Positions 9,559-44,609 of a stretch of DNA of 64,000 bases are shown in pieces. The notes under the pieces are model-generated. The model was not told the origin of the DNA, did not search any database, and saw nothing but the letters and a program-made list of their open reading frames with translations. Position numbers and translations under genes: made by a program. Source of the DNA: an uncultured delta proteobacterium (lineage in GTDB: Bacteria; Desulfobacterota; Binatia; Binatales; Binataceae); contig CAWEEQ010000004.1 of assembly GCA_963808235.1 (NCBI GenBank), forward strand, positions 2,296,243-2,360,242, written 5' to 3'. Numbering within the stretch: position 1 is the first letter of the stretch; each line of letters begins with the position of its first letter.

Positions 9559-10041
9559 CTACTGCTTGTCGAAGACCAGCGCGGTCTTCGCGGTTTTGCC
9601 GTCTGGGTCTTTTCCCTTGGCCATGATCTTCAGGACCTTCCCATCCTTGGAGACCACGAGCCACGCCGTACGAACCACCGTTCCGCCCTTCTTGAGAGTC
9701 GCTTCCGTCTTGTTCGCGCTGATGCGCTTAAGTGCGATGGTATCGGCGCCGCCTGGCACTCCTGTGCCGGTAGTCGGACTATCCTTGTCGTCGTAGTTCG
9801 CCGTGTAGCTCCATGAAGTGCTGGTCCCATCCGCGCCAGTCGCCTGCGAGGTGGACTTAATACCATCGCCCGCAACTTCCATCGTAAGCGTAAGACTCTT
9901 CGGCACGGGCCTCGGACTGTCCTTCGACTTTTCGGCGTTCATGTTCCACGTGCCGATTATCGGATTGGTCTGGGCAAGCACGACTCCCTGCACCAGCACG
10001 GCCATCGCCACGACACTGACAAATCCTAAAACCCGCTTCAT
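9559..10041 (-). CDS. Hypothetical secreted protein (beta-rich, lipocalin-like?)
   Basis: Signal peptide MKRVLGFVSVVAMAVLVQGVVLAQ followed by a Lys/Thr-rich beta-strand pattern. Confidence 0.4.
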   Translation of the reverse strand: MKRVLGFVSVVAMAVLVQGVVLAQTNPIIGTWNMNAEKSKDSPRPVPKSLTLTMEVAGDGIKSTSQATGADGTSTSWSYTANYDDKDSPTTGTGVPGGADTIALKRISANKTEATLKKGGTVVRTAWLVVSKDGKVLKIMAKGKDPDGKTAKTALVFDKQ

Positions 10042-10211
10042 CGGAACTCTCCTCCTGAGTTTTCTCCAACTGAAATTTGACACTTCCCCAAGCCGCAAAC
10101 GAAAAAGAACATAATTAAGTTCCGCGATCGCGGCAAGCGCGCCGACGCCTCTCGGAGTGATGCGTTGACATGCACCGATGGGTCCGATAATTTGACTCGT
10201 TCGGGCACATC

Positions 10212-10526
10212 ATGTTTGCAATCGTAAGGACAGGCGGAAAACAGTACCGCGTCGGCGTCGGCGACCAGATTACGGTCGAGCGGCTGGTCGGCGAGGTTGG
10301 CGCGGCGATATCGCTCGACGAGGTGTTGGCCGTCGGCGGCGAAGCGCCCCAGGTCGGCACTCCGGTAATCGCGGGCGCATCGGTAACGGCGAAAATTCTC
10401 CAGCAGCCGCGCGGCACGAAAGTGATCGTGTTCAAGAAGAAGCGGCGCAAGAACTACCGCCGCAAACGCGGGCATCGGCAGGAACTTACAGTGCTGAAGA
10501 TCGAGGAAATCTCCGCCGGCGCATAG
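10212..10526 (+). CDS. rplU: 50S ribosomal protein L21
   Basis: [20 protein letters not shown] is the canonical L21 N-terminus. Confidence 0.95.
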
Positions 10527-10554
10527 CCCGGCGTTCATTTTAGGGAGACTCTCC

Positions 10555-10839
10555 GTGGCGCATAAGAAAGGACAAGGTTCGACGCGCAACGGCCGCGACA
10601 GTCCGGGCCAGCGCCGCGGAATCAAGATTTACGCGGGCCAGACCGTCAAGGCCGGCAACATCATTATCCGCCAGCTCGGCACCCGGGTTCATCCGGGGCG
10701 CAACGTCGGGCTCGGGCGCGACTACACGATTTACGCGCTCATCGACGGTGTGGTTAAGTACGAACCGAAAGGCGAGAAGCGGCAGGTCAGTGTCGAGCCG
10801 CTTCCCGCAACCAGCGACACCGCAGGGGCGTCCGCATAG
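10555..10839 (+). CDS. rpmA: 50S ribosomal protein L27
   Basis: [16 protein letters not shown]...IIIRQLGT is the canonical L27 sequence. Confidence 0.95.
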
Positions 10840-10865
10840 GGACCATCATCCCGCAAGATCGAATT

Positions 10866-26160: not shown

Positions 26161-27351
26161 TTGATTCGCGCGCCACACGTAAAACGATCGCGAACTTCTC
26201 AAGCGCTGCGACGCAAGCCGGCGCGCGATCGCGCCGACGCTCGCGAACGAATCGAGCCCCATCCGATTCGACTCGGACCGAATCTCTACATCGCACATAC
26301 TCAGCCCGGTTTTGAGGCGGTCGCCTCCGACGAGATTGCGACCCGCATCGCCGGCGCTCGCGAGATAACCCGGCGCAGCGTGCCCGATCGCGCCGGCATG
26401 ACGATCTTCTTCGCACCCGCCGCGCAGAAGCTCGGCGCGCTTCGCACCGTCGAAGATCTGTTCGGATTGGCCGGTTATCGCCCCGGCCTTGCGCCGGAAA
26501 TGCAGACGCTGGAGAAAGTCCGCGCTGCGGCGCGTGAGGCTCCGCTCGTCGAGCCTGCGCTACAGTCCCGGGTCAAAATTTCACCGGGCGCGCGCGCAGG
26601 CAGACGGCTCAAGTTCCGGGTGATCGCAAGGATGGCCGGGGAGCACGAGTTTCGCCGAGTCGATTTTCAGCATGCGGTGGAACGCGGAATCGTGGAACGG
26701 ACCGATCACACCTGGCGCCTGGAAGAAGAAGACGCCGAGGTCGAGTTGTGGGCCACCATGATCGACTCGGAGTTCTTTCTGACCGTGCGACTCAGCGACG
26801 ACCGGATGCGGCATCGCGAATATAAGGCCGCGCATCGGCCGGCTTCGCTCCGCGCGTCAAGTGCGGCGGCGATGGCGTGGCTGTCCGAGCCGCGCGACGA
26901 CGATGTGGTGCTCGATCCTTTTTGCGGAGCGGGAACGATTCTGATCGAGCGCGCGCATCTGGGTAAGTACGCGATGCTCCTGGGCAGCGATCGTGACCAG
27001 GGCGCGCTCGCGGCCGCGCGAATCAACGTAGGCGCTCGCTACAAGCCGATACAGCTTGAACCTTGGGACGCGGCTGCGCTCCCGGTCGCCGACGCGAGCG
27101 TCAGCAAAATAGTCACCAACCTGCCGTGGGGAATCCGCTACGGTTCGCACGGCGAGAATCGAAAACTCTATCCCCAATGGTTCCGCGAGTTCGCGCGCGT
27201 GCTCAAAAACGGCGGCACGACGGTGATCCTCACCGCGGAATGGCGGCTGATGCGCGATCTCGAGCGCAGCCATAAGATTGCGCCGGGCAAGATCATCCGC
27301 GTGTCGATCCTCGGCACGCCCGCTTCCGTGTATGTAATCAAAAAGTCGTAG
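26161..27351 (+). CDS. THUMP-domain SAM-dependent RNA methyltransferase (UPF0020/RlmL-like)
   Basis: Methyltransferase motifs VVLDPFCGAGTILIE and NLPWG. N-terminal THUMP-like region. TTG start and an Arg-rich N-terminus make the start uncertain. Confidence 0.65.
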   Translation: MIRAPHVKRSRTSQALRRKPARDRADARERIEPHPIRLGPNLYIAHTQPGFEAVASDEIATRIAGAREITRRSVPDRAGMTIFFAPAAQKLGALRTVEDLFGLAGYRPGLAPEMQTLEKVRAAAREAPLVEPALQSRVKISPGARAGRRLKFRVIARMAGEHEFRRVDFQHAVERGIVERTDHTWRLEEEDAEVELWATMIDSEFFLTVRLSDDRMRHREYKAAHRPASLRASSAAAMAWLSEPRDDDVVLDPFCGAGTILIERAHLGKYAMLLGSDRDQGALAAARINVGARYKPIQLEPWDAAALPVADASVSKIVTNLPWGIRYGSHGENRKLYPQWFREFARVLKNGGTTVILTAEWRLMRDLERSHKIAPGKIIRVSILGTPASVYVIKKS

Positions 27352-27357
27352 CGACTC

Positions 27358-28205
27358 TTACACCGCGGTAAAGCCGGCGCGGCTGATGAGCACACGGTGG
27401 GCGCCGAGCCGCAAACTCATCGCCTCGACCAGCTCGCGCTCGGCACCGGGTTGGAACCATCGTTCGTAGCCATGCCTCGCGTACAGCTCGCGCATCCCGA
27501 GCGCGCAGATCGCGCACCCCCTGCGCCGTCGCCGTCGAAGTAGGTGTCAACTATCACGCGATCGGCTGAGTCGGCTGCGAGCTCGGCGAATCGCTCGGGA
27601 TTGTTGGGCATCATCGGCGCGATTGCGAGTTGCACGAAAATGCCGCGCGCGCGGAACATCCGCGCCGTGCGGAGCCGCCGCTCGATCGACGGCGAAGTCG
27701 GCGTGATCGCGCGGCGCACGCAGTCGTCGTCGGTCTCGAGCGTGATCGAGACGATCGCGCGGTCACCGAGCGCGCGAATTATTTCGACATCGCGCTCGAC
27801 AAGCGGGCTTCGGGTCTGGATCAGGAGCCGGCGGATCGGATGGCGCACGAATGCCTCGAGCGCGGCGCACGTCAGTCCGAGCCGCCGCTCGATTCCCTGG
27901 TACGGATCGGTCGCGCTGGACATGAAGATCGTCGTTTCGCCGAGTCGGTGCTTTTCTTCGAGCGCGACCAGTTCATGTTCGAGACGCTCGGCGAGATTTG
28001 ACTTGGCGATCACCCAACTTCCCCAGTCTCCCGATTCGGTCCGCGCGACGGGCAGCGTGCGGACGTAGCAGTACGGGCATCCGCCGGCGTCGCCGAAAGC
28101 GCATCCGACGTAGGGGTTGAGTGAGAACGCGAAGCCCTTAAGGAAACCGCCGGTCGGCGTGAGCGCGCGCGTGGCCGGCTTCAGCCTATAGCGTTTGGTC
28201 GACAA
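27358..28205 (-). CDS. Radical SAM protein, SPL/SplB-like family (DNA-repair-photolyase-like), frameshifted at a C5 homopolymer
   Basis: LNPYVGCAFGDAGGCPYCYV Cys motif. The frame is lost after DTYFDGDGAGG at the CCCCC run 27527-27531. The C-terminus ...CAICALGMRELYARHGYERWF...AV* continues in another frame to the stop at 27358. Confidence 0.6.
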
Positions 28206-29579
28206 CTACTTCGCGGCGGGCGAGAAGAAAGCCAGCACCGCGGTCGAGATTTGACGCTGCTCACTGCCGTCGATAGGCACCACCCAGGCCATCGGGGGCG
28301 GCGCGGTTCCGATCGCCTGGTCGGGAGAGCCCAGCAATCGCACCCCGGCATAAATGAACGACGACGAATCGGGAGACCAGATTGTGTGGGAGACCGCGAG
28401 CTGATCGAAGAAACGATACGCGGTCGATTCCTCAGTCGTGGTGAGAAAATTCCCGAGCTCTTTTCCCTTGCCGCTCTGAACGTCGACCACCGCCCACGTG
28501 TAATACGGCTTTTCTTCGGGCACCTGGATATAGGCGAGGTGGCGCGAGTCGGGCGCGAAGAAAAATGCGGCGACCTCGTTCTTGGTCAGCCACTTCGAAT
28601 TCGCGTTCGCGATATCGACCAGTTTGATCCCGTGATAGACCGGATTTTGCGGCGTCAGCGCGGTCGAGTATGCCAGATGCGCCGAGTCGGGCGCCCAAAT
28701 GAAGCTGTTCTCTCCAACTGGCAGGCTCACGATCGAGCGCGGATTTTTCGCGTCCGCGTCGGCAACCACAATGTTAGATTCGGCGTGGTAATTTGCGATG
28801 TAGGCGAGATGCTTTCCGTCTGGCGACCAGCATGGAGTCTTGAACGGCGTGCGCCCGCTCGAGAGCACTTTCTCGACGTTCTGGCTGGTCGGCGTCAGGC
28901 TCATCAGCGAAACCTGCTCGGTGCGATCGGAATTCAGTGCCAGCGTATGCACCGCCAGCTCGCCCGCATTCGCGCCCCAATCGAAATAGAGCGGCATCCC
29001 GGTGGTGACGATTCTGACCGGCGACGATTCCTTGATCTCCGCGAGCATCAGGCTCAGTCCGCGCGGCTCGTCGATGAGGAACGACAGATGCTGCCCGTCG
29101 GAGAGCCAGCTCATGTAAATGATACGCTCGGTGCGGCTTTCGAAGATCTCAGTCGGCTGCTGGCGCGCCAGATCGTAAACCCAGAGCGCGAACGAGTTGT
29201 CGGAATCCTTGCGCCCCTCGGACCAGTACGCGAGGCGTTTGCCGTCGGGCGAGAAGGTCGGGAATCCATACTGAGTGCCGCTGCCGGGGCGATCTTCGGA
29301 GCCGTCGTCGGCGACTCGAACGATTAGATCGTCGCGCCCGTCGTCGCGCCGCACGCGGGTCGCCGGAGCCCTGCAGGTGACACATTTGGGCTCCGCACAT
29401 TTCGCGTCGCAGTAGTAGATATTGCCGTCCGTGCCGACGAACGTGATCGCGCCGCCCGGGACAGGAGCACCGTGTGCAATCGTCGCGACCAACAGCAGCA
29501 GGCATCCGGCCGCAGCCGAGATTCGGAGCCAGGCGCGAATAGACAAGACACGTATGGAAAAAATCGCTGATATCGTCAT
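28206..29579 (-). CDS. TolB-like WD40/PD40 beta-propeller periplasmic protein
   Basis: Signal peptide, then repeated PD40-like blades (WSPDG..LAY, FAPDS.HLAY, WSPDSS). Confidence 0.7.
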   Translation of the reverse strand: MTISAIFSIRVLSIRAWLRISAAAGCLLLLVATIAHGAPVPGGAITFVGTDGNIYYCDAKCAEPKCVTCRAPATRVRRDDGRDDLIVRVADDGSEDRPGSGTQYGFPTFSPDGKRLAYWSEGRKDSDNSFALWVYDLARQQPTEIFESRTERIIYMSWLSDGQHLSFLIDEPRGLSLMLAEIKESSPVRIVTTGMPLYFDWGANAGELAVHTLALNSDRTEQVSLMSLTPTSQNVEKVLSSGRTPFKTPCWSPDGKHLAYIANYHAESNIVVADADAKNPRSIVSLPVGENSFIWAPDSAHLAYSTALTPQNPVYHGIKLVDIANANSKWLTKNEVAAFFFAPDSRHLAYIQVPEEKPYYTWAVVDVQSGKGKELGNFLTTTEESTAYRFFDQLAVSHTIWSPDSSSFIYAGVRLLGSPDQAIGTAPPPMAWVVPIDGSEQRQISTAVLAFFSPAAK

Positions 29580-29704
29580 CGAACTTTAGAATCGAGCTTT
29601 AGAATTGCGCCTGCACGGGGGGCAAGGCAAGAACAGTTCGGTCGAAGCAAGAACGATCTCTGCCGTGTGTTGACTTGACCCTCCGATCAGGCAAAGTTGG
29701 ACGG

Positions 29705-39779: not shown

Positions 39780-39885
39780 GTCAGGTTAAGGCCGTTACGA
39801 GTGAGGGTCAAGGAAGCGGTCGAGCGATGCGGACGGATGGTGGACATAGCACTGCGCCGCGGTTTTGCTATGTTTCGAGTTATCG

Positions 39886-41361
39886 ATGGAAAGCAGACTG
39901 TTCATCGCCGGACGCTATATCGATGCCGCCAAATCCTCGCGCTTCGCCGACGTCGAGCCTGCGACTGAGCGCGAACTCGCGCAAGTCGCGAGCGCCAGCG
40001 CCGACGACGTCAATCGCGCGGTCGTTGCGGCGCGCGAGGCTGCCGATCACGGCCCCTGGCCACGCATGAGCGCCGATACTCGCGCGGGAATCATTGGCAA
40101 GTTCGCCGACGGGATCGAAAAGCGCGCGCGGGAACTGGGCACGCTCGAGGCGCGCGACGTCGGCAAGCCGGTCTCCGAGTGCGTCAATCACGACGTGTCG
40201 CGCGCGGCGCGCAATCTGCGCTTCTTTGCCGCCGCGGCGCAGACCTGGACTCATGAGGCGGCGCAAAGCGACGCGAAATTTCTCGGCCGCGATTTGAAGC
40301 TGGTGAACTTCACCGAGCGTCCTCCGGTCGGCGTCGGCGCGATCATCATTCCGTGGAACTCGCCGCTGATGCTCGCGACGTGGAACCTGGGCCCCTGTCT
40401 GGCCGCGGGAAATAGCTGCGTGCTGAAGCCGTCGGAGCTGGCGCCGCTCACTTCGATTGCGCTCGGTGAGATCGCGAACGAAGCGGGACTGCCGCGCGGA
40501 GTGTTGAGCATCGTGCCGGGGCTCGGCGACGCAGGCGCTGCGCTGGTGTCGCATCCAGGCGTCGACGCGGTCGCGTTCACCGGCGGCGTCGAGACGGGGC
40601 GACTGCGTGATGGCAAGCGCGGCGACGACGCTCAAGCGCGTGATGCTCGAACTCGGCGGCAAGTCGCCCAACATAGTATTCGCCGACGCGAATCTGAAAC
40701 GCACTGCCGCCGGAGTGGCGCGATCGATCTATCGCAGCCAGGGACAATCATGCGTAGCGGGCGCGCGATTGCTGGTCGAGAGCAGCGTCGCCGCGGAATT
40801 CATCGAATTGCTGATCGCCGAAATACCAAAACTGAAAATAGGCGACCCGCTGAAAGACGACACCGAGTACGGCCCGCTCATCTCGGGGGCGCATCGTGAG
40901 CGCGTGCATGCGCTGGTCGCCGACGCGATCGCCAACGGCGCGAGCGTGCTGGCGGGCGGCAAGATTCCCGCCGAGCCCGCGACCGGTTTCTACTATATGC
41001 CCACGATTCTCGACGGCGTCGACGCGAAGTCGCGCGCCGCGTCCGAGGAAATATTCGGGCCGGTGCTGACTGTGGAGAGATTCGACGACGAAGAGCAGGC
41101 AATCGCGAGTGCGAACGCATCGCGCTACGGCCTCGCGGCTTACGTATGGACCTCGAAATCGATCGCGCGCTCAGAGTCGCAAACTCACTCAAGACCGGGA
41201 TGGTGTGGGTCAACAGTTTCTTCTTGCGCGATCTGCGGACTCCGTTCGGCGGCGCGAGGATGAGCGGACTCGGCCGGCAAGGCGGCCGCTTCAGCATGGA
41301 GTTCTGGACCGAGCCGAAACTTGTTTGTATCGCTTACGGTGAGGAGGAGCACGATGGGTAG
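39886..41361 (+). pseudogene. Aldehyde dehydrogenase (CHMS-dehydrogenase-like) with two compensating frameshifts (+1 near 40605, -1 near 41150)
   Basis: ALDH motifs are split over three ORFs: ...VAFTGGVETGR | VMASAATTLKRVMLELGGKSP...EEIFGPVLTV...YGLAAYVWTS | IDRALRVANSLKTGMVWVNSF. The outer segments share one frame. Confidence 0.75.
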
Positions 41362-42251
41362 GGTGGTCGCCGCGGTGTTCACGACGCACGTGCCGAGGTT
41401 GATGATCCTCGATCAGAGCGCGCGGGTCAGGTACATGGGCCGCAATGTGACGACCTTCTACGACGCGATGCCGCGGCTTGAGCGCGAGCGGTTGCACACG
41501 CTCGACTTCGACACCTTCCTGCTCTTCGACACTCACTGGTTCTCGACCCTCGAATACGTGCTCAACGCGCACGAGCAGCTGCGCGGCGTGTACACCTCGG
41601 AAGAATTGCCGGCAGATGCTCCACGATCTCGAGTACGACTACCAGGGCGACGCCGAACTCGCGCGCGCGGTCGAGTTAGAGGCTCGCGAACGGGGCATTC
41701 GGGCAATCGCGTCGGCGCATCGGAACCTGCCGATACATTATCCGACGCTTAACGTGATGCACTATTTCAATCCCGATGCGCGCCGACGAGTGCTATCGGC
41801 AAGCGTTTGTCAGACCGCGTCAGTGAGGAACGACCTCGCTTATGGCGCGGCGATTGGCCAGGCAATTTGGAAATCCAATCGGCGCGTGGTGATCGTCGCG
41901 TCGGGCGGAATGTCGCACAAGTTCTGGGACTACGATCGAATTTTAGATCGCGCGTCGGCGTCGCCCGAGGACATCGCGTCGACCGCCAATCGCCTTTACG
42001 ACGAGCGGATCATGGAATGGTTCAAGCAGGGGCGTCACGATGCGGTGCTCGCCGCCGCCGACGATTTCCGCGCGCATTGCTCGCCGGAGGGCCGCTTCTC
42101 GCACTACATAATGATGGCGGGCGCGATGGGCGGCGACTCGTGGAACTGGCGCGGCGAGCAATTTGGAAAATACGAGGCAGCGATCGGAACCGGCCAGGCA
42201 ATCTTCTTCTTCCAACCATCAAGCGGCGGCGCCGCCCGCGCGGCTGCCTGA
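41354..42251 (+). pseudogene. LigB-type (class III) extradiol ring-cleavage dioxygenase with +1 frameshift near 41618
   Basis: N-terminus MGRVVAAVFTTHVPRL and later ...YDYQGDAELA...NLPIHYPTLNVMHYFNP...VVIVASGGMSHKF lie in two frames that join at EELP|QMLHD. Confidence 0.7.
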
Positions 42252-42272
42252 GTCAGTTCCTGGAGGTGCGCA

Positions 42273-43162
42273 TTGAAACTTGCACGCGGAATATTGGCGA
42301 TGCTGGTGACGCCGTTTCATGATGATTATCGGCTGAATGAGGCGGCGCTCCGGAAAGAGGTGCAGTGGGCGATCGCAAGCGGCGCGCAGGGCGTGGTTGC
42401 GGCGCCGAGTATCGGCGAGTTCCTCCATATGAACGAAGCGGAACGTGCGAGAGTCTTCGAGATCGTCGTTGAAGAAGCGCGCAAGCATCCGAATGTCTCG
42501 ACAGTCGCGATGACCTCGGGCGCGACGACGCTCGAAACGCTCCACTACGCGAAGATCGCCGCGCGACTCGGATACGACGCGCAGCAGGTGATCCCGCCCT
42601 ACTACTGGCGATGCGGCGAGGCCGAAGTCGAGCGTCATTACAGGATGATCGCCGAGGCTGGCGATTTGCCGGTCGTCATCTACCACAATCCCGCGCTCAG
42701 CAAGTTCAACATCTCGCCGAAGTTTCGCGGGGAGACTCGCGACGATCGAGGGCGTCGTGGCATTCAAGGAAGTGCTGACCGATTTGCAGCATCTCGAGGC
42801 GCTCTACGACGAAGTGGACGGCCGCGCCGATATTTACAATACGTTTCGCGCGATGCTGGCCGGGTTGATGCTCGGAGCGGCCGGGCGGCTTCATCAACAT
42901 TTTCGCGGTGCCGGCGTCGGTCGCATTGATGAAGGCCTTCAAGGCCGGCGATTACAAACGCGCAGAGGAAATTCAGCGTCGTCTCAACCGATGCTTCCCG
43001 CGCGGTGGCGAGGAAACTCTGGGCCATCTCGGAACGACCAAAGTAACCGCCTCGGTAGCGACCGGAATCGAGATGGGTCCGGCGCGGCCGCCGTACATGG
43101 CGCCCGCGGACGCCGCGGAGCGAATCCGGAAACGCTTGCCGCTGCTCAACGAGGTCATCTGA
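42273..43162 (+). pseudogene. DapA/NAL-family (dihydrodipicolinate synthase-like) aldolase with two frameshifts (near 42726 and 42887)
   Basis: LAMLVTPF...IYHNPALSKFNISPKF | AGRLATIEGVVAFKEVLTDL...AMLAGLMLGAAG | GFINIFAVPASVALMKAFKAGDY lies across three frames. Confidence 0.7.
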
Positions 43163-43163
43163 T

Positions 43164-44609
43164 ATGGGCGCGCGATCGGGCAACAACTATCTGACCTCGC
43201 TGAAAAAGCTTGGCGCTGAAATCTGGATTGGCGGCGCACGAGCCGGTGATGTGACCGCGCATCCGGCGTTCGCAAACTGCGCGCGTTCAGTCGCCTCGCT
43301 CTACGACATGCAGATGGAGCATCCCGAGACGATGACCTTCCGCACCGACGATGGCGGACGCGCCGGGATGTCGTTCATGATTCCGAAAAGCGTCGAGGAC
43401 GTTCGCAAGCGAACCCGCATGATGAAGTCATGGGCGGACTTCGGATGCGGGATGCTCGGGCGCACACCCGATTATCTGAACGTGAGTATCGCGGCGATGG
43501 CAGCGGCGCGCGAATTCTTTGCAGCCAGCGACAAACGCCACGGCGACAATATCTGGAACTATTATCTCGAGGCGCGCCATCACGACTGGTGCGCGACGCA
43601 TACGCTGGTAAATCCGCGGGCGAGCCGCGCACAAGGATGGTCAGGACACACCGACGCCGAGTTGGCTCTGAGACTGGTCGAGAAGACCAAGGACGGCATC
43701 ATCGTGAACGGATGCCGGATGCTGGCGACGTTGGCGCCACTCTCGGAAGAATTGCTGGTCTTTCCTTCGACAGTGCTTAAGGCCGAACCGGCTGCCGAGC
43801 CGTTCGCGCTCTCGTTCGCAATCCAGTGCAACACGAAGGGTCTCAAGTTCCTGTGCCGCGACACATATGACCTCGGACGCTCGCGCTTCGACCATCCGCT
43901 CGCGTCGCGCTTCGACGAAATGGACGCGGTGGTCGTGTTCGACAATGTGCTGGTTCCGTGGGAGCGGGTGTTCCTGTGCGGCGATGTTGCGCGATGCAAC
44001 GCGCTGTATGGAGAGACCGGCGCAGTCGTCCACATGATGCATCAGGTGGCGGTGAAGAACGTTGCGAAGAGCGAGTTCCTGCTCGGACTGGCCGCGCGGA
44101 TCGCGGAGGCGAGCGACGCGATGGTGTTGCCGCATGTACGCGAGCGGCTTGCGGAGATGATCACGACCACCGAAACGATGCGGTCCTGTCTGCGCGCCGC
44201 GGAGGCTGACTCAAGTGCGGACAAGTGGGGAGTGTTCGCGCCGGCGCGCGCGCCGCTCGACGCGGCGCGCAACCTCTTTCCGCGCCTGTATCCGCGGATG
44301 GTGGATATAATCCAGCTCAACAGCTCGAGCTCGCTGATGGCGACGCCGGCGGAGAGCGATTTCGCCAATCCTGCCGAGCTGCCCGATATCGAGCGTTACT
44401 TCGCGGCAGCGGACTCACCGGCGCGCGAGCGCGTCGCGCTTTACCGGCTGGCGTGGGAAGTCGCATGCAGCTCCTTCGGCGGTCGCCAGGTCTTGTACGA
44501 GCGGTTTTTCTTTGGCGATCCGGTCCGGATGGCCAGCGCGCTGGTAGATAACACGGATCTGAAGCCGCTTGTCGAGAAGGTTAGGGCGTTTCTGAAGCGC
44601 CCCGACTGA
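43164..44609 (+). CDS. HpaB-family 4-hydroxyphenylacetate 3-monooxygenase-like oxygenase component (two-component flavin monooxygenase)
   Basis: N-terminus NYLTSLKKLGAEIWIGGARAGDVTAHPAFAN.ARSVASLYD matches HpaB. 481 aa, intact. Overlaps the stop of the preceding gene. Confidence 0.75.
   Translation: MGARSGNNYLTSLKKLGAEIWIGGARAGDVTAHPAFANCARSVASLYDMQMEHPETMTFRTDDGGRAGMSFMIPKSVEDVRKRTRMMKSWADFGCGMLGRTPDYLNVSIAAMAAAREFFAASDKRHGDNIWNYYLEARHHDWCATHTLVNPRASRAQGWSGHTDAELALRLVEKTKDGIIVNGCRMLATLAPLSEELLVFPSTVLKAEPAAEPFALSFAIQCNTKGLKFLCRDTYDLGRSRFDHPLASRFDEMDAVVVFDNVLVPWERVFLCGDVARCNALYGETGAVVHMMHQVAVKNVAKSEFLLGLAARIAEASDAMVLPHVRERLAEMITTTETMRSCLRAAEADSSADKWGVFAPARAPLDAARNLFPRLYPRMVDIIQLNSSSSLMATPAESDFANPAELPDIERYFAAADSPARERVALYRLAWEVACSSFGGRQVLYERFFFGDPVRMASALVDNTDLKPLVEKVRAFLKRPD

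Follow-up and report, generated by a model that had tools for sequence, protein, structure and literature searches.

The 64,000-nucleotide stretch of Binataceae DNA analysed here (the window) contains a radical SAM gene with two irregularities, a three-cysteine motif of unusually wide spacing and a reading frame that is lost before the C-terminus of the family sequence. The question raised by this locus is whether both are signs of a decaying gene. Our analysis identifies the locus as the Binataceae ortholog of an uncharacterised SPL-like (COG1533) radical SAM enzyme, which is found family-wide in soil Binataceae. It is an ordinary gene family, recognised correctly in the preliminary description of this DNA, with a clade-wide loop variant and a single-base interruption that the same description placed wrongly.

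Gene structure and coordinates

Homologs of 280-282 aa span 100% of the radical SAM gene, which starts with TTG at 28203-28205 and stops with TAA at 27358-27360; these positions bear out the span given for it in the preliminary description, and the gene lies on the minus strand (Table 1). The open reading frame that is actually read opens with MSTKRYRLKPATRALTPTGGFLKGFAFSLNPYVGCAFGDAGGCPYCYV and follows the family sequence over residues 1-233. After DTYFDGDGAGGARS it continues with 29 unrelated residues, an out-of-frame tail (ARSGCASCTRGMATNDGSNPVPSASWSRR, residues 234-262), and stops at 27417. The displaced C-terminus lies in another frame and is identical at 46 of its 48 residues to P0001, the closest intact homolog. 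The exact 262-aa frameshifted product is also found as P0019, on a 3.85 Mb NCBI/ENA contig and on a Logan contig. Three syntenic loci (L002-L004) share 85-87% DNA identity with the radical SAM gene.

Table 1. Window coordinates of the radical SAM locus, its immediate neighbours and the split genes elsewhere in the window.
Feature	Position	Strand	Remarks
SPL-like (COG1533) radical SAM gene, whole, as if intact	27358..28205	-	Homologs have 282 codons and a stop; one base short here
ORF as actually read	27417..28205	-	262 aa; identical to P0019
Displaced C-terminal 48 codons and stop	27358..27504	-	ALGMRELYARHGYERWF...AGFTAV, then stop; out of frame with the start
Putative cluster-binding loop (CX7CX2C)	28068..28103	-	C35-AFGDAGG-C43-PY-C46; read from the sequence
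Frameshift site	27505..27509	-	Ser233 is TCT (27507-27509); Arg234 codon reduced to GC (27505-27506)
C5 run (G5 on the coding strand)	27517..27521		Blamed in the preliminary description; not the lesion
PD40/Tricorn-type beta-propeller gene	28206..29579	-	Intact, co-oriented, upstream; TAG stop abuts the radical SAM TTG start
UPF0020/RMKL-like methyltransferase gene	26161..27351	+	Intact, convergent; PF01170, 116 bits; 89% identical to L004 ortholog
Aldehyde dehydrogenase gene, split in three ORFs	39865-40899, 40607-41263, 41146-41361	+	Pfam positions 4-219, 222-404, 405-461
LigB-type extradiol dioxygenase gene, split in two	41321-41752, 41478-42251	+	Extra G at 41612 compared with L009
DHDPS-like gene, split in two or three	42273-42929, 42757-43194, 42908-43162	+	

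Family membership and fold

The protein belongs to the radical SAM superfamily by its Pfam match (PF04055, 54.9 bits against a cut-off of 29.5, residues 30-210), and it carries three cysteines with CX7CX2C spacing instead of the canonical CX3CX2C. Its best NCBIfam matches, the PA0069 family (NF033668) and the Rv2578c family (NF038135), are both partial and below threshold, with 94.8 bits against a curated cut-off of 360 (profile positions 57-228 of 348) and 73.6 bits against a curated cut-off of 430, respectively. No SPL model was present among the NCBIfam matches at E ≤ 1. A database search produced 1540 relatives. The best 120 of these show 67-89% identity with a coverage of 98-100% of the repaired query, and almost all have 280-283 aa. 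Those with a name are annotated as "radical SAM protein [Candidatus Binataceae]", "SPL family radical SAM protein" or "DNA repair photolyase".

An AlphaFold2 model of P0001, built with a 138-sequence alignment, has a pLDDT of 96.3 and a pTM of 0.93. Its top six matches in the PDB are all SPL structures (TMq 0.61-0.66), the best being 4K9R and 4FHC with a TMq of 0.66, a Foldseek E-value of 1.6e-7 and 12% identity. At the level of sequence, a profile of 17 family members matched the SPL entries of the PDB with E-values of just 0.2-0.9, and in a weak HMMER alignment, which is indicative at most, the catalytic Cys140 of SPL from G. thermodenitrificans falls on Ala98 within the motif SSATDPYQ. The earlier assignment to the SPL family is therefore sound for the fold and for COG1533, but it does not extend to orthology with SPL, given the 12% identity, an E-value of 0.2 and the alanine at position 98. 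The protein is SPL-like in fold and falls within the wider COG1533 group, but it is no SPL ortholog and lies outside both named NCBIfam families.

For the purposes of this work, a Binataceae CX7CX2C ortholog group was defined by a length of about 282 aa, the motifs GCAFGxxGGCPFCY, SSATDPYQ, QTRSP, ETDD and GDGxxGxRSR, and at least 67% identity to P0001-P0120. The product of the window gene belongs to this group: all motifs are present and the reading frame alone is broken. Compared with P0001, it is 89% identical in residues 1-233 and 96% identical in residues 235-282.

The putative CX7CX2C cluster loop

The three cysteines, which would hold the [4Fe-4S]/SAM cluster, are encoded at 28101-28103 (Cys35), 28077-28079 (Cys43) and 28068-28070 (Cys46) within the motif LNPYVGCAFGDAGGCPYCYV. 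The preliminary description had reported CX7CX2C spacing with a four-residue insertion, and both the sequence and its alignment to canonical relatives agree with this. The insertion follows the conserved GCAFG, with canonical proteins reading GCAFG----CSYCY where the window reads GCAFGDAGGCPFCY. In the AlphaFold2 model of P0001, the 10-residue blocks that span the loop have mean pLDDT values of 92-95, and a short helix is formed by residues 36-41.

The same spacing was found in 119 of the 120 closest homologs (the best 120 of 1540 relatives), with the consensus GCAFG(D/A)xGGCPFCY, and in all 17 Binataceae loci checked; the spacing is no chance pattern. The sole exception among the 120 is P0108 (282 aa, 68% identical), in which Gly replaces the first cluster Cys (NPYVGGVFGAGGGCPFCY); the substitution may reflect a sequencing error or a variant that has no cluster. 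The loop is thus unusual when set against the canonical motif, but it is no oddity of this copy. Because it is common to the close homologs, it is a trait of the subfamily and not a symptom of decay, an outcome which the preliminary description had itself named as contrary to its proposal. As judged from these alignments, CX7CX2C is the normal and apparently selected state of the clade, derived from the four-residue Gly-rich insertion DAGG. It should not be taken for damage; the proteins that share it are a coherent and as yet unnamed subfamily of SPL-like radical SAM proteins in Binataceae.

A wider survey used one representative per 50%-identity cluster and covered 120 proteins with a readable N-terminus. 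The canonical CX3CX2C was present in 86 of these representatives, followed by CX6CX3C (15, one of them corrected by eye), CX7CX2C (12) and CX6CX2C (4), with CX11CX2C, CX26CX2C and CX30CX2C represented by one protein each. Relatives from Bacillales (40-46% identity), Paenibacillus or Bacillus species among them, have the canonical spacing, CX6CX3C occurs in Dehalococcoidia relatives and CX6CX2C in an Entotheonellaceae relative. The CX6CX3C proteins form a sister clade (P0126, P0134, P0149, P0151, P0166 and others; loci L027 and L039), for example GCAFGDGGCGVYCY, in which the change extends to CX2C, a stretch of the radical SAM motif that is usually fixed. P0125 and P0132 carry acidic or Gly-rich insertions of 26-30 residues between the first two cysteines.

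Position of the frameshift

The preliminary description had the reading frame lost in a run of five C residues at 27527-27531. A loss of frame is evident, as the family C-terminus continues in another frame down to 27358, but the break is at codon 234, and the C5 run itself lies ten bases away from the position given for it (Table 1). The Arg234 codon lacks its first base, which would fall between plus-strand positions 27506 and 27507. In tblastn searches, each of 24 homolog ORFs from related loci aligned in two parts, residues 1-233 down to 27507 and residues 235-282 from 27504 onwards. When aligned with the DNA of three loci, the window has TCT -GC GCG CTC where the homologs have TCG CGC GCG CTC. 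At the protein level, the homologs read DTYFDGDGAGGARSRALGMRELYARHGYERWF; the first frame of the window matches them through GGARS and the other frame from ALGM. The alternative sequences across the lesion region (27480-27540) are TCTGCGCG and TCTCGCGCG.

The first frame keeps the family sequence GDGAGGARS for four codons beyond the C5 run. Moreover, the run exists solely through a synonymous change of GGC to GGG, the homologs having GGC GGT and no homopolymer at this place. The proposed extra C does open an uninterrupted frame of 282 codons, but its product would read GGCAICALGM instead of the family GGARSRALGM, with CAIC where every homolog has ARSR or RRSR. Ser233 and Arg234 lie within the conserved GDGxxGxRSR block, in which G225, D226, G227, G230 and R232 are invariant in a 17-sequence alignment, so the invariant Arg232 would be lost in such a repair. 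For annotation or expression of the radical SAM gene, the frame is to be repaired at codon 234 and not in the homopolymer.

The product of the frameshifted gene would keep the radical SAM core (residues 1-233), with the last 49 residues replaced by 29 unrelated ones. In the P0001 model, residues 234-282 form three helices and a strand with pLDDT values of 93-98, and the displaced tail holds G246, G278 and F279, which are invariant in the 17-sequence alignment. Based on this model, the truncated product is predicted to be inactive, and the lesion would amount to a loss of function.

Origin of the one-base deletion

The displaced tail is conserved and its stop codon is retained, which points to a lesion that is very recent or else not real. 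When read in the old frame, the tail differs from L002 by 12 synonymous and 3 non-synonymous substitutions (dN/dS 0.063), compared with a dN/dS of 0.119 for the first 233 codons; the tail is thus still under purifying selection in that frame, and no less conserved than the remainder of the gene. We give an even chance to the reading in which the one-base deletion is a genuine and very recent loss-of-function allele present in the sequenced DNA. The decay suggested in the preliminary description is in this sense possible, through a single very recent one-base deletion, whereas the homopolymer mechanism and the coordinates attached to it are incorrect.

An assembly or consensus error, with the gene and its motif as described above and an organism that would encode an intact 282-aa enzyme, is a serious contender that we rate somewhat below even. 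The source of such an error could be long-read basecalling in a GC-rich context beside GATC, or the consensus of a strain mixture. The Logan contig ERR10755935_38738 (1456 bp), from a separate k-mer assembly of reads, is 100% identical to window positions 27114-28569, deletion included, which speaks for a real allele; if ERR10755935 is the assembly's own long-read set, however, this contig is not independent and would have copied a systematic basecalling error. The source is a single contig of 3.85 Mb, which suggests long reads, and the deletion abuts a GATC site (27508-27511). On the other hand, the TCT^GC site is not a homopolymer, while longer runs elsewhere in the window (A7, A8 and G6) sit inside intact genes. 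The perfectly preserved downstream frame with its retained stop codon is predicted by an artefact as well. GATC occurs 569 times in the whole window, compared with about 225 expected from base composition.

The surroundings of the gene can be read in both directions. Five neighbouring genes within 5 kb, encoding EF-P, the methyltransferase, the beta-propeller, a ~180-aa protein and a Rieske protein, are intact compared with their L004 orthologs, and the other genes of the window, about 55, are intact too, which indicates a low background rate of indels. Against this, the window has at least five further frameshifts, which lie in three adjacent genes at 39865-43162, with sites near 40603, 41148, 41612, 42725 and 42885; their confinement to one accessory operon would fit real decay too. 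The genes flanking these split catabolic genes on the plus strand are intact, and the segment represents either an accessory operon in decay or a stretch where the consensus is poor. Plus-strand ORFs that seemed to switch frame at ~18.0-18.5 kb were rejected as frameshifts, being shadow ORFs of two minus-strand genes.

Similar damage is seen in two related Microflora Danica Nanopore MAGs. In L043 (positions 10001-10848; MAG MFD05512.bin.1.184) the radical SAM ortholog has two frameshifts, near residues 84 and 240, and in L012 (MAG MFD03399.bin.2.12) many frame switches relative to intact window genes occur at ~4-7 kb and 15-17 kb. Microflora Danica assemblies are Nanopore-only and were polished with one round of Medaka (PMC12313526). 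Frameshifts appear to be common in these long-read Binataceae MAGs, and their presence in comparable long-contig MAGs makes indel errors plausible in such assemblies. An intact allele from the same species was not found in the protein database, where the best non-self match has 89% identity, and a degenerate DNA pattern across the lesion site had no match in the JGI metagenomes.

A broader reading, improbable as a whole, combines a genuine deletion with a functional loop. It would make the stretch between the first and second Cys an evolutionary hot spot, with 3, 6, 7, 11 or 26-30 residues and a CX6CX3C sister clade, and would have the Binatota-wide DAGG insertion tune the cluster potential, shield the cluster from oxygen or dock a reductase in aerobic soil bacteria. 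The frameshift would then show a lineage caught losing a conserved putative DNA-repair enzyme.

We consider it very unlikely that the interruption is tolerated or used, be it through an active 262-aa enzyme, a C-terminal ORF acting in trans or ribosomal recoding at the site. Upstream, the radical SAM core is indeed preserved together with the GDGxxGxR block, and an ORF of 45 codons (27358-27495, with ATG at 27495, MRELYARHG...) covers most of the lost C-terminus. However, residues 234-237 would be absent from such a pair, the AlphaFold2 model shows the C-terminal elements, with high confidence, as integral to the fold, none of more than 100 homologs is split at this site, and the site has no slippery heptamer or homopolymer. 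Programmed frameshifting and transcriptional slippage were rejected, as the site lacks a slippery sequence and the gene is uninterrupted in the homologs. Least credible of all is the version in the preliminary description, a slip at the C5 run in which a sixth C restores GGCAICALGMRELY and the CX7CX2C loop belongs to that decay: alignment at both the DNA and the protein level rules out the slip, and the loop is conserved throughout the clade.

Gene context and putative function

The radical SAM gene directly follows the beta-propeller gene, which encodes a protein with a hydrophobic, signal-peptide-like segment at its N-terminus. This arrangement was found in 10 of the 17 Binataceae loci, the window included. 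The conserved neighbours are the beta-propeller, an unknown protein of ~170 aa, a Rieske protein and a 267-aa protein, encoded in part by divergent genes, and they gave no clue to a pathway in the Binataceae loci. On the other side, the stops of the methyltransferase and radical SAM genes are 6 nt apart (27345-27360) with no obvious terminator, and a short palindrome, AGTCG-TAG-CGACT, lies across the methyltransferase stop codon.

Just upstream of the beta-propeller start, at ~29580-29660, there is a tandem duplication (ATTCTAAAGCTCG/ATTCTAAAGTTCG) as well as two copies of a motif resembling GATCGTTCTTG and CTGTTCTTG. The L004 counterpart has two copies of GGATCGTTCTTG and a single ATTCTA unit. 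These repeats may be operator or promoter elements of a divergent gene pair.

By analogy, the enzyme would be a DNA-lesion-directed radical SAM enzyme, a proposal which draws on the repair of a DNA photoproduct by SPL and on the LexA control of SplB-like relatives. Reductive cleavage of SAM would generate a 5'-deoxyadenosyl radical, and this radical may act on a nucleic-acid lesion. The splB-like genes of COG1533 are bound by LexA in Verrucomicrobia, and LexA regulation of such genes has been reported for several other phyla (PMC4951493). A LexA site at Rv2578c is known from ChIP-seq (PMC3381160). A regex scan for LexA boxes upstream of the operon in 16 loci, using seven published box types and one relaxed half-site variant, returned one isolated match and none of these box types upstream of the window gene, with the qualification that published boxes may not fit Binatota.

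Comparison with known systems

The protein resembles SPL (SplB, 4FHC/4K9R) in its radical SAM partial barrel, in which the first strand is followed by the cluster loop, and the GC...C..CY context and the xxTD motif of the two proteins align. In contrast to the Binataceae protein, SPL carries CX3CX2C (GCMGHCHYCY), and with 340 aa against 282 aa the Binataceae protein is shorter by about 60 residues. Binataceae are not known to form spores, which is another contrast to SPL. With the PA0069 and Rv2578c families, the "SplB-like" proteins of COG1533, it has the motifs NPYxGC...CY, TDPYQ and TR/ET in common, and these families are uncharacterised, like the Binataceae gene.

Other radical SAM enzymes with expanded loops also have extra residues between the first and second Cys and keep CX2C. 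QueE of Burkholderia multivorans, for example, has CX14CX2C. PoyB and PoyC carry CX7CX2C, and the expanded loop of PoyC is compatible with activity (PMC5682303). RadicalSAM.org lists CX7CX2C for Megacluster-2-5, CX6CX2C for Megacluster-5-2 (DUF5131) and further clusters from CX4 to CX11. Such variants count as members of the superfamily; none is listed there for the SPL subgroup, Megacluster-5-3 (PMC9477430). As expanded loops are known in other subfamilies, the CX7CX2C motif described here adds a data point and no new principle. The known cases, however, belong to unrelated subfamilies (B12-dependent methyltransferases, ELP3/YhcC-like proteins, DUF5131 and QueE), whereas here the loop length varies between sister clades of a single family, with 3, 6, 7, 11 and 26-30 residues in addition to CX6CX3C. 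This family thus provides, in otherwise alignable proteins, a set of naturally occurring loop lengths at a single cluster site, which could be used to probe the tolerance of the site to cysteine spacing.
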